Shown: one piece after another, positions 35,642 to 37,080 of the stretch
Layout: every line of letters begins with the position of its first letter
How positions within the stretch are numbered: position 1 is the first letter of the stretch
Source: Verrucomicrobiota bacterium
Lineage (GTDB): Bacteria; Verrucomicrobiota; Verrucomicrobiia; Limisphaerales; AAA164-E04
NCBI GenBank assembly: GCA_047947115.1
Contig: CP170459.1
Coordinates: forward strand, 704,001-768,000
Direction: 5' to 3'
DNA: 64,000 nucleotides
Program-made: the position numbers and the translations under genes
The notes under the pieces: model-generated
What the model saw: only the letters and a program-made list of their open reading frames with translations
Told to the model about the DNA's origin: nothing
Databases searched by the model: none

Positions 35642-35762
35642 AGCAAACGTCGAGACGCTGGCCTGTAAGCCGACCTGACGATTCTCAGTTAAAGGTTCAA
35701 ATTTCATCACACGCTCCAAATCACAGCGGCGGTGGCCAGTTGCCTGCACCGTCCTGGTAGGA
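35642..35762 (-). repeat. attC3 (121 bp; R'' TCCTACC, R' GTTTGCT; 5-bp deletion in L')
   Basis: Near-identical to attC1/attC2 except that plus-strand GGTCAGGC is reduced to GAC. Confidence 0.9.
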
Positions 35763-35765
35763 TAC

Positions 35766-36152
35766 CTAAGGATACTTCTCCAGCCAAGCGTCTGAATCAT
35801 CTCCCAAATCCTCTGGGGCAATCTTCCGCAAATGATCGATGATGTCCCGGACAACATGAGCTCGAGCTGCTTCGACCATGTCATCCAACTTGGAATCTGG
35901 GACCAGTGTGCTGCCCGATGGGTAATACCCAATAGTGCCACGCATCTGGCCAACTGCCTCACTCGGATCAGTGGTCTCAAGTGCGGACTCTCTCATCACT
36001 TCGAATATAGTAACGTAACTGTGAGCGAGTCCGAGTCGAACATGTTGAATACCGTAATCCACAAAAAACCAAGCGGACAGGATAGCGAATAATACAGCGA
36101 CAACCACTGATGGAACCAAACGTATACGTTTCACGTGTTCTGGTTCCGTCAT
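35766..36152 (-). CDS. Cassette 3: hypothetical protein with an N-terminal TM helix
   Basis: 128 aa fills the space between attC2 and attC3; LVPSVVVAVLFAILSAWFFV. Confidence 0.8.
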   Translation of the reverse strand: MTEPEHVKRIRLVPSVVVAVLFAILSAWFFVDYGIQHVRLGLAHSYVTIFEVMRESALETTDPSEAVGQMRGTIGYYPSGSTLVPDSKLDDMVEAARAHVVRDIIDHLRKIAPEDLGDDSDAWLEKYP

Positions 36153-36160
36153 GTTCTGGA

Positions 36161-36286
36161 TCCTACCGTCGAGGTCAGGCGCTGGCCTGTAAGCCGACCT
36201 GACAATACTCGGTTAAAGGATCAAATTTCATCATATGCTCCGAATCAAAGCGGCGGTGGCCAGTTGCCTGCACCGCCCTGGTAGGC
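36161..36286 (-). repeat. attC2 (126 bp; R'' GCCTACC, R' GGTAGGA)
   Basis: Minus strand GCCTACC-AGGGC-GGTGCAGGC...GCCTGACC-TCGAC-GGTAGGA; extra G in L''. Confidence 0.92.
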
Positions 36287-36299
36287 GATAAAGAGCAAT

Positions 36300-36632
36300 C
36301 TAACTCTCCATGGTCCGTCTTGCATTCTCTTTCAAGTGCAGTATACGTATCACAGTGCCCCGCGCAATAACTCGAACGCCCTCTCGAATCTCAAACTCTG
36401 TACCAACTTCAAGGTGGTCGACGTGTGCGTGAGGACTCAAGAATCGAAACAAAGTCCTCGCAGTATCGCCCGGTCGAACGCAATCTCTTCCAAGATACTC
36501 CTGATCTGCATCCCAATTCTCTCCCTTGTAATAAAACTGCCCCCTATATCCTGTATGCACTGGTCTGGATCTACCACCGTCCTCGGTGGATAGAAATGAT
36601 ACCTCTGCCTCAATGTCTGGTGGAAATTTCAA
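36300..36632 (-). CDS. Cassette 2: stand-alone EF-Tu domain III-like protein
   Basis: IEAEVSFLSTEDGGRSRPVHTGYRGQFYY...VRPGD...FEIREGVRVIARGTV aligns by eye with EF-Tu [29 protein letters not shown]...VMPGD...FAIREGGRTVGAGVV; TTG start. Confidence 0.85.
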   Translation of the reverse strand: MKFPPDIEAEVSFLSTEDGGRSRPVHTGYRGQFYYKGENWDADQEYLGRDCVRPGDTARTLFRFLSPHAHVDHLEVGTEFEIREGVRVIARGTVIRILHLKENARRTMES

Positions 36633-36635
36633 GTG

Positions 36636-36761
36636 GCCTACCGTATAGGTCAGGCGCTGGCCTGTAAGCCGACCGGACGATACTCAGTTAAAGGTTCAAA
36701 TTTCATCATACGCTCCGAATCACATCGGCGGTGGCCAGTTGCCTGCACCGCCTTGTTCGAC
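36636..36761 (-). repeat. attC1 (126 bp; R'' GTCGAAC, R' GGTAGGC)
   Basis: Minus strand GTCGAAC-AAGGC-GGTGCAGGC...GCCTGACC-TATAC-GGTAGGC. Confidence 0.92.
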
Positions 36762-36765
36762 GATG

Positions 36766-37056
36766 TCACGCTCTCGTAATCACCCACTCCTCTGCACTCT
36801 TCCTGAAGTTGTCGGGTATGTTTTTCCACCTAGTCCCTGTAGAAAGTGTCAAATCTCCAACTGTATCGACAATGTGCTTGAACCAATCCAGATAGCTCCA
36901 CTCTCTGGGCTTGGGGGAATACAAGTATCGCCCCTTGGAGTCCCAGTGAACTTCGGTACCCTCACGATAAATCATCGGGTAAGTGTTAGATGTCGGAGTA
37001 ATGAGCAAGCGTCCCTGCTCGTCAATCGCTACCTCGGCTATGGGATCGGTATTCAC
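36766..37056 (-). CDS. Cassette 1: small protein resembling the integron cassette family Hfx_Cass5
   Basis: IDEQGRLLITP..YPMIYREGTEVHWD..RYLYSPKPREWSYLDWFKHI recalled as Hfx_Cass5-like; GTG start 6 bp beyond the attI core. Confidence 0.7.
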   Translation of the reverse strand: MNTDPIAEVAIDEQGRLLITPTSNTYPMIYREGTEVHWDSKGRYLYSPKPREWSYLDWFKHIVDTVGDLTLSTGTRWKNIPDNFRKSAEEWVITRA

Positions 37057-37062
37057 TTTGTC

Positions 37063-37080
37063 ATCGAACAGTTTAGATTA
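37063..37080 (-). other. attI site (crossover G|TTCGAT between 37069 and 37068)
   Basis: Minus strand TAATCTAAACT-GTTCGAT; GTTCGA is the complement of the cassette 1 R'' (TCGAAC). Confidence 0.8.

Follow-up and report, generated by a model that had tools for sequence, protein, structure and literature searches.

Natural GGT/ACC attC cores alongside GTT/AAC in the integron cassette pool of one family of coastal bacteria

Based on our analysis of the window, the whole 64,000-nucleotide stretch of DNA studied here, and of its relatives, we describe GGT/ACC as a variant attC core that occurs naturally throughout one lineage, a family of coastal bacteria, and that a known tolerance explains. The account that we consider quite probable is that of an ordinary integron served by a cassette pool with two core spellings, GTT/AAC and a GGT/ACC end that was likely founded once and then inherited, both of which join at the same attI base; where unlike neighbours meet, the attC between them should, by prediction, pair imperfectly and allow little excision. 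This is a natural counterpart of what only engineered sites had shown: the “invariant” integron triplet is a matter of convention, and an ordinary integrase suffices for an entire cassette pool to drift to a different spelling.

The window contains a complete integron, with an intact intI on the plus strand, an attI and four cassettes on the minus strand:

37225..38223, plus strand: intI, integron integrase, 332 aa from GTG, intact (TIGR02249, 435 bits; cut-off 265)
37063..37100, minus strand: attI, crossover between G 37069 and 37068 (outer limit approximate)
36642..37068, minus strand: cassette 1, canonical GTT/AAC; ORF 37056-36766, Hfx_Cass5 family (PF18287, E 9e-19)
36636..36761, minus strand: attC1, 126 bp; mixed junction, AAC end and then GGT start
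36167..36641, minus strand: cassette 2, reciprocal GGT/ACC; ORF 36632-36300, EF-Tu domain III-like (PF03143, E 4e-10)
36161..36286, minus strand: attC2, 126 bp, intact; matched, ACC end and then GGT start
35648..36166, minus strand: cassette 3, reciprocal GGT/ACC; ORF 36152-35766, 128 aa
35642..35762, minus strand: attC3, 121 bp; mixed junction, ACC end and then GTT start; 5 nt of L' missing
35010..35647, minus strand: cassette 4, canonical GTT/AAC; antitoxin-like ORF 35592-35374 and a frameshifted ParE-like ORF
35010..35085 (35010 end approximate), minus strand: attC4, left part only; AAC end, interrupted by an insertion sequence
33393..35009 (far end approximate), minus strand: ISNCY element in attC4 (transposase NF033593, 400 bits; cut-off 325)

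The array is co-oriented throughout and bounded by attC sites, as expected of an integron, and the core letters given in the preliminary description are all present: G|GTAGGC and GCCTACC in cassette 2, G|GTAGGAT in cassette 3, and canonical cores in cassettes 1 and 4. Start and end are complementary in 7/7 bases in both cassette 2 and cassette 3, 360 and 409 bp apart. These two work like attC-bounded cassettes but, having ACC/GGT instead of the canonical AAC/GTT, are non-canonical members. Both attC1 and attC2 show 5/5 spacers, 7/7 L pairs and the extra base in L'', a layout that the broken attC3 and attC4 fail to keep. Since attC3 is without 5 nt of L' (the same letters are found in contigs of sequencing runs X1, X2 and X5) and attC4 is cut by the ISNCY element, attC2 is the only intact matched site.

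Several smaller features of the locus were recorded. The cassette 2 product (36632-36300) would be a stand-alone 110-aa protein resembling EF-Tu domain III, and the Pfam search with the 128-aa ORF of cassette 3 returned no family. The antitoxin-like ORF of cassette 4 matches PF09720 at E 7.5e-5, just under the cut-off, and its frameshifted ParE-like ORF (35377-35090) has a weak ParE match (E 0.07), within which runs X2, X4 and X5 show a 2-nt gap relative to the window at 35131. The ISNCY transposase has an internal stop at 34647, and broken IS66 remnants (31918-34868) adjoin this element at the array end. On the other side, the intI ORF extends upstream to a TTG at 37180, and three 16-bp palindromic boxes of the GGAA-N4-TTCC type (37171-37156, about 37125-37110 and 37096-37081) lie between intI and attI. 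Similar boxes are present in genomes G002, G007 and G021 and in Desulfobulbales integrons; they are possible repressor or IntI binding sites. As a genome-wide regulon they were rejected, with 19 copies, below controls with other spacings. An Rfam scan of 34500-38500 gave no matches at E up to 1.

The reciprocal letters of cassettes 2 and 3 are real, since contigs of independent runs carry them too. Contigs of X1, X2 and X5 have 0 differences from the window over 35722-36196, as do X1 contigs over 36256-36705 and X6 and X7 contigs across the attC1 junction; JGI contig L052 is 99.75% identical to the attI region and 100% identical over 207 bp of cassette 2. The source sample is possibly X1; X2, X5, X6 and X7 stand under other study codes. 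The matching material was sampled from marsh, estuary and sea water, and nearest-cluster comparisons point, weakly, to a member of Verrucomicrobiota as the probable host. Such agreement in X1, X2, X5, X6, X7 and the JGI contig rules out sequencing error, and a shifted register as the usual crossover was also rejected, because the spacers and the attI junction place GGT in the GTT register. The broader idea that decay or assembly error accounts for the GGT/ACC cores could appeal to the partly degraded state of the arrays (attC3 and attC4 here; 44 of 128 family sites with other cores or broken ends). Its probability is nevertheless close to nil: letter-for-letter agreement between runs refutes it for the window, and 36 reciprocal cassettes across six genomes and metagenome contigs, together with fresh insertions at attI, speak against it more widely. 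The view of the preliminary description that random decay or sequencing error would not give reciprocal cores was thus borne out by the independent contigs and the 36 reciprocal cassettes.

Both spellings enter at one attI. An identical attI upstream sequence leads into four different first cassettes, all joined at base 37069: cassette 1 (GTT) in the window genome (G000) and L052, a different GTT cassette in X1, a GGT cassette in X2 and, in L056, another one of the GGT class. IntI identity between L056 and the window is 99.4%. The first cassette of L056 ends in ACC, but its outer bases match in only 2/4. The site beside intI therefore receives different cassettes at one base, as an attI does. 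In X6, cassette 1 sits behind another attC, as expected after a new insertion ahead of it. Genus g3 repeats the picture, the same attI core being followed by GGT in G018 and by GTT in G021; two G018 platforms begin with the same cassette and so were counted as one event. Judging from this population variation, IntI would catalyse recombination in the window integron. The suggestion that this integron handles a second, GGT-core class alongside GTT cassettes was upheld by the two GGT and two GTT cassettes at the same attI and by the four junction types found between cassettes.

For the wider count we took 141 candidate start/end pairs and kept the 92 in which the core read GTT or GGT and at least 3/4 outer bases were complementary, the other 49 being left out as unscorable. 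In the host family (six genomes) and metagenome contigs, 61/65 scorable cassettes were reciprocal, with 36 GGT/ACC, 25 GTT/AAC and 4 discordant; G018 alone gave 22 GGT/ACC, 12 GTT/AAC and 1 discordant (n=35). Other families of the order gave 27/27 GTT/AAC. The Fisher p of 1e-13 serves as a description of the table only, because kin genomes are not independent. The GGT cassettes form 35 distinct clusters, and six of those in G018 recur in 2-3 contexts with different neighbours at 92-98% identity. Four further copies of the window attC family lie at two other loci of G000, two of them with ACC ends; this 126-bp family was found in 4/101 related genomes and in most of 16 metagenome stretches, and in G018, G020 and G021 ACC ends also stand on different attC bodies of 56-60 and 105 bp. 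Tabulating the 126-bp repeat and the R''/R' triplets in relatives, as had been proposed, therefore yielded more GGT/ACC cassettes (36/65) and not the lack of them that had been named as one part of the counter-evidence. Further afield, a left-end pattern matched in 35/401 genomes of the order, outside the host family at control level; two of the 26 left-end loci examined there (G139 and G261) look like real ACC ends. A right-end pattern matched in 10/401 genomes of the phylum, at control level. Because both patterns are lineage-shaped, other GGT pools are possible beyond their reach.

The GGT/ACC end travels with its surroundings. A GGT start is followed by AG in 36/39 cases, and an AG-starting spacer follows ACC in 39/50 sites as against 4/56 after AAC. 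The outer four bases covary between cassette start and end in the same way as the core does, so the same cause makes the core complementary and the changes are not independent events. The “four coordinated changes” of the preliminary description are accordingly an overcount: the GGT-AG and ACC-AG associations point to one inherited end. Judging by this linkage, rather than by a tree of the sites, it is likely that the ACC ends of many cassettes were copied from a single ancestral site end. Tied to one spacer type across attC bodies, the ACC end could serve as a marker for how new cassettes gain ends.

What enzyme handles these cassettes? The window intI is the only copy over the TIGR02249 cut-off in its genome, and alignment of its product to VchIntIA (2A3V) shows conservation of its catalytic residues and of the Lys in contact with the core. 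A shift of the host family's integrases in specificity towards GGT might seem to be indicated by the fact that six family IntIs (G000, G007, G002, G003, G018 and G021) lie within a single clade (100/99), outside which lie the order's other integrases, all of them with GTT arrays. We consider such a shift very improbable. The same clade holds Desulfobulbales-type enzymes, and these sister IntIs showed 20 GTT, 4 GAT and 0 GGT at the 24 attI sites readable by eye, with no GGT among the 18 scorable cassettes of their integrons. GGT is thus not found throughout the clade, and the core-contacting residue, which the preliminary description had proposed to compare, is unchanged. Moreover, IntI1 already accepts GGT, an engineered GGT attC matching the wild type in recombination with attI1 (relative rate 1.0; Frumerie et al., NAR 2010, PMC2811028, Table 4); together with the sisters that lack GGT, this removes the need for a special IntI. 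An ordinary IntI, the tolerance of IntI1 and the occurrence of all four junction types make GGT a trait of the cassette pool. As a separate observation, the Desulfobulbales GAT occurs at four attI sites (L210, L220, L199 and L217), two of which resemble short gene-less GAT/ATC mini-cassettes.

Sites known as attG are secondary integration sites with relaxed G-x-T cores. Such sites prefer GAT, according to work cited in PMC2811028, and share tolerance at position 2 with the GGT cassettes, but they are targets without a hairpin partner, whereas here the change is present in both arms of the cassette's own attC. Closer to our case are the engineered attCaadA7-GGT and attI1-GGT sites in Table 4 of PMC2811028, where the same reciprocal change at triplet position 2 was used with IntI1: wild-type attC with GGT attI1 gave 0.96, and GGT with GGT gave 0.71. 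The portions of that paper considered here state that the integrons characterised up to then all shared the triplet, and its authors regard GTT as conserved for cassette exchange more than for mechanism. Their GGT was engineered at one site, whereas ours is natural and family-wide, with 35 distinct cassette clusters, and the mixed junctions that GGT/GTT neighbours create here lie, for GGT, outside the tests in those portions. With canonical chromosomal integrons (VchIntIA/VCR, 2A3V; as described in the parts of PMC4889954 considered here), this system shares a divergent intI, attI and the R''-5-L''...L'-5-R' layout, as well as the extra L'' base, long terminal structure, single-gene cassettes, a toxin-antitoxin cassette and CALIN elsewhere. 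It differs at the triplet: AAC/GTT is conserved above other positions in those parts of Cury et al. 2016, whereas over half of the scorable cassettes here (36/65) use ACC/GGT. Our literature search, within journals readable without subscription, turned up no description of natural GGT/ACC cassettes; attC catalogues in supplements could hold some unremarked.

We suggest a plausible route by which the two spellings coexist. A GGT cassette has complementary start and end, so that its excised circle would pair fully, and such cassettes occupy the GTT register both at attI and after other types of attC, recurring with different neighbours. As IntI1 data would have it, only the first G must be shared, so that an unmodified integrase could insert either class, the receiving attI currently reading GTT or GGT. 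The ACC end would have arisen once in the host family and been copied into new cassettes. A mixed junction would place a mismatch next to the cut, so that cassettes should leave mainly in three ways: from like-spelled runs, through recombination with attI, or through homologous recombination of one repeat with another.

This last step is a prediction from folding and from published mismatch data. In the folded bottom strand of a mixed junction the pair beside the cut is T:C or G:A, and in the experiment considered from PMC2811028, attC x attI1 recombination fell from 2.2e-3 to 6e-6 when position 2 was unpaired (a T:T mismatch there, T:C/G:A here); R-box mismatches in attI1 reduce integrase binding in the part of PMC4792948 used here. 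The recombinogenic fold of attC1 is predicted at 6e-6 in the array versus 0.6 in its own circle, and that of attC2 at 0.31. The bottom-strand folding that had been proposed as a check gave a positive outcome for the circles of cassettes 1 and 2, in which R and L boxes are predicted to pair at 0.60 and 0.35; longer 137-nt pieces folded otherwise (z -0.5 and -1.7). Median scissile-pair probabilities were 0.95 and 0.37 for matched sites and 0.008 and 0.017 for mixed ones, differences in fold that include the outer four bases. Mixed junctions are therefore predicted by these models to be poorly recombinogenic, and recombination of attI with attC2 to be the only likely excision in the window. The junctions classified at 84/128 sites comprise 25 AAC-GTT, 25 ACC-GGT, 18 AAC-GGT and 16 ACC-GTT. 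All four kinds of insertion have therefore happened. We looked for enrichment of mixed junctions and found none (34/84 against about 42 expected, p 0.09, slightly fewer), so that locking leaves no visible enrichment.

It would be a further step to suppose that GGT is selected and not just tolerated, either because it eases the insertion of cassettes while hindering their removal or because it shields the pool against other integrons or against elements aimed at attC ends. In G018 most cassettes are GGT (22/35), as are all six that recur there, and GGT with its AG spacer persists in two genera and on several types of attC body (56-127 bp). A founder effect yields the same counts, mixed junctions are not enriched (34/84), both classes mix freely at attI, which leaves no barrier to entry, and the six IS91-type element junctions at attC ends are ambiguous as to core. 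We therefore regard selection as unlikely, and the pool of two tolerated spellings remains our preferred account. On a bolder form of that account, which we put forward tentatively and find rather doubtful, the spellings would act as a two-letter code: either enters freely, exit occurs only between like-spelled neighbours, and the succession of spellings along the array decides between locked and mobile genes; GGT would have overtaken GTT in one lineage, and its doubled G would let the cut slip by one base, leaving junctions one G short or long. Junctions that are off by a single G do occur at six of the 128 family sites, some short and some long (five in G018, one in G021), with one more in G007 and a possible one in G000; none were seen in the control lists, read by eye. 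As the letters hint, a cut one base over, restoring the canonical A|C step, would give one-G-short and one-G-long products; these junctions may alternatively reflect homopolymer error or decay. In any case, the family offers a natural setting for testing what keeps GTT conserved and how cassette retention depends on mismatched junctions.

The preliminary description also expected standard attC models to under-detect such arrays. This did not hold for a proxy covariance model, R1 (not IntegronFinder or HattCI), built from 21 short AAC/GTT sites. On four G018 loci R1 gave 54 hits, 43 of them classified, including 20 ACC-GGT sites (median 44.6 bits, range 31-57) beside AAC-GTT sites at 49.7 bits (n=5, four being training sites). 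With either core, the 126-bp sites of the window escaped R1 (best 9.4 bits), a length effect of this model. Primers are another matter: cassette-PCR primers listed in Table 1 of PMC3146285 end in GTTRRRY and would mismatch GGT starts near the primer 3' end. They are expected to miss the GGT class, so environmental surveys may have undercounted GGT cassettes.

Remnants and mobile elements elsewhere in the family add some detail. The G000 CALIN (C1:4321.1-4324.1 kb; compare L051) carries toxin-antitoxin-like cassettes and is without a 342-bp cassette found in L051, X1 and X8. The join falls inside the attC repeat, and the difference fits either homologous recombination, a way round locked sites, or assembly collapse. 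At G000 C1:5847681-5848230, next to rplM, the remaining 3' part of a second intI is joined to an ACC-ended cassette; intI fragments with cassettes also appear in related contigs (L050, L053, L055 and L062), which suggests an old integron remnant. An IS91-type element, with a Y2 transposase and a tyrosine recombinase, is inserted at attC R'' ends (L076 14760-17316, L108, L003, L071, L107 and L112), with tandem copies in G018. The G018 intI has two frameshifts, the second platform retains only an intI fragment, and the attI region (L076 10720-10800; L109 7260-7340) has a long inverted repeat scoring like an attC hairpin. One cassette of the G018 array (L076 17389-17889) encodes a Thoeris ThsB TIR-like protein.
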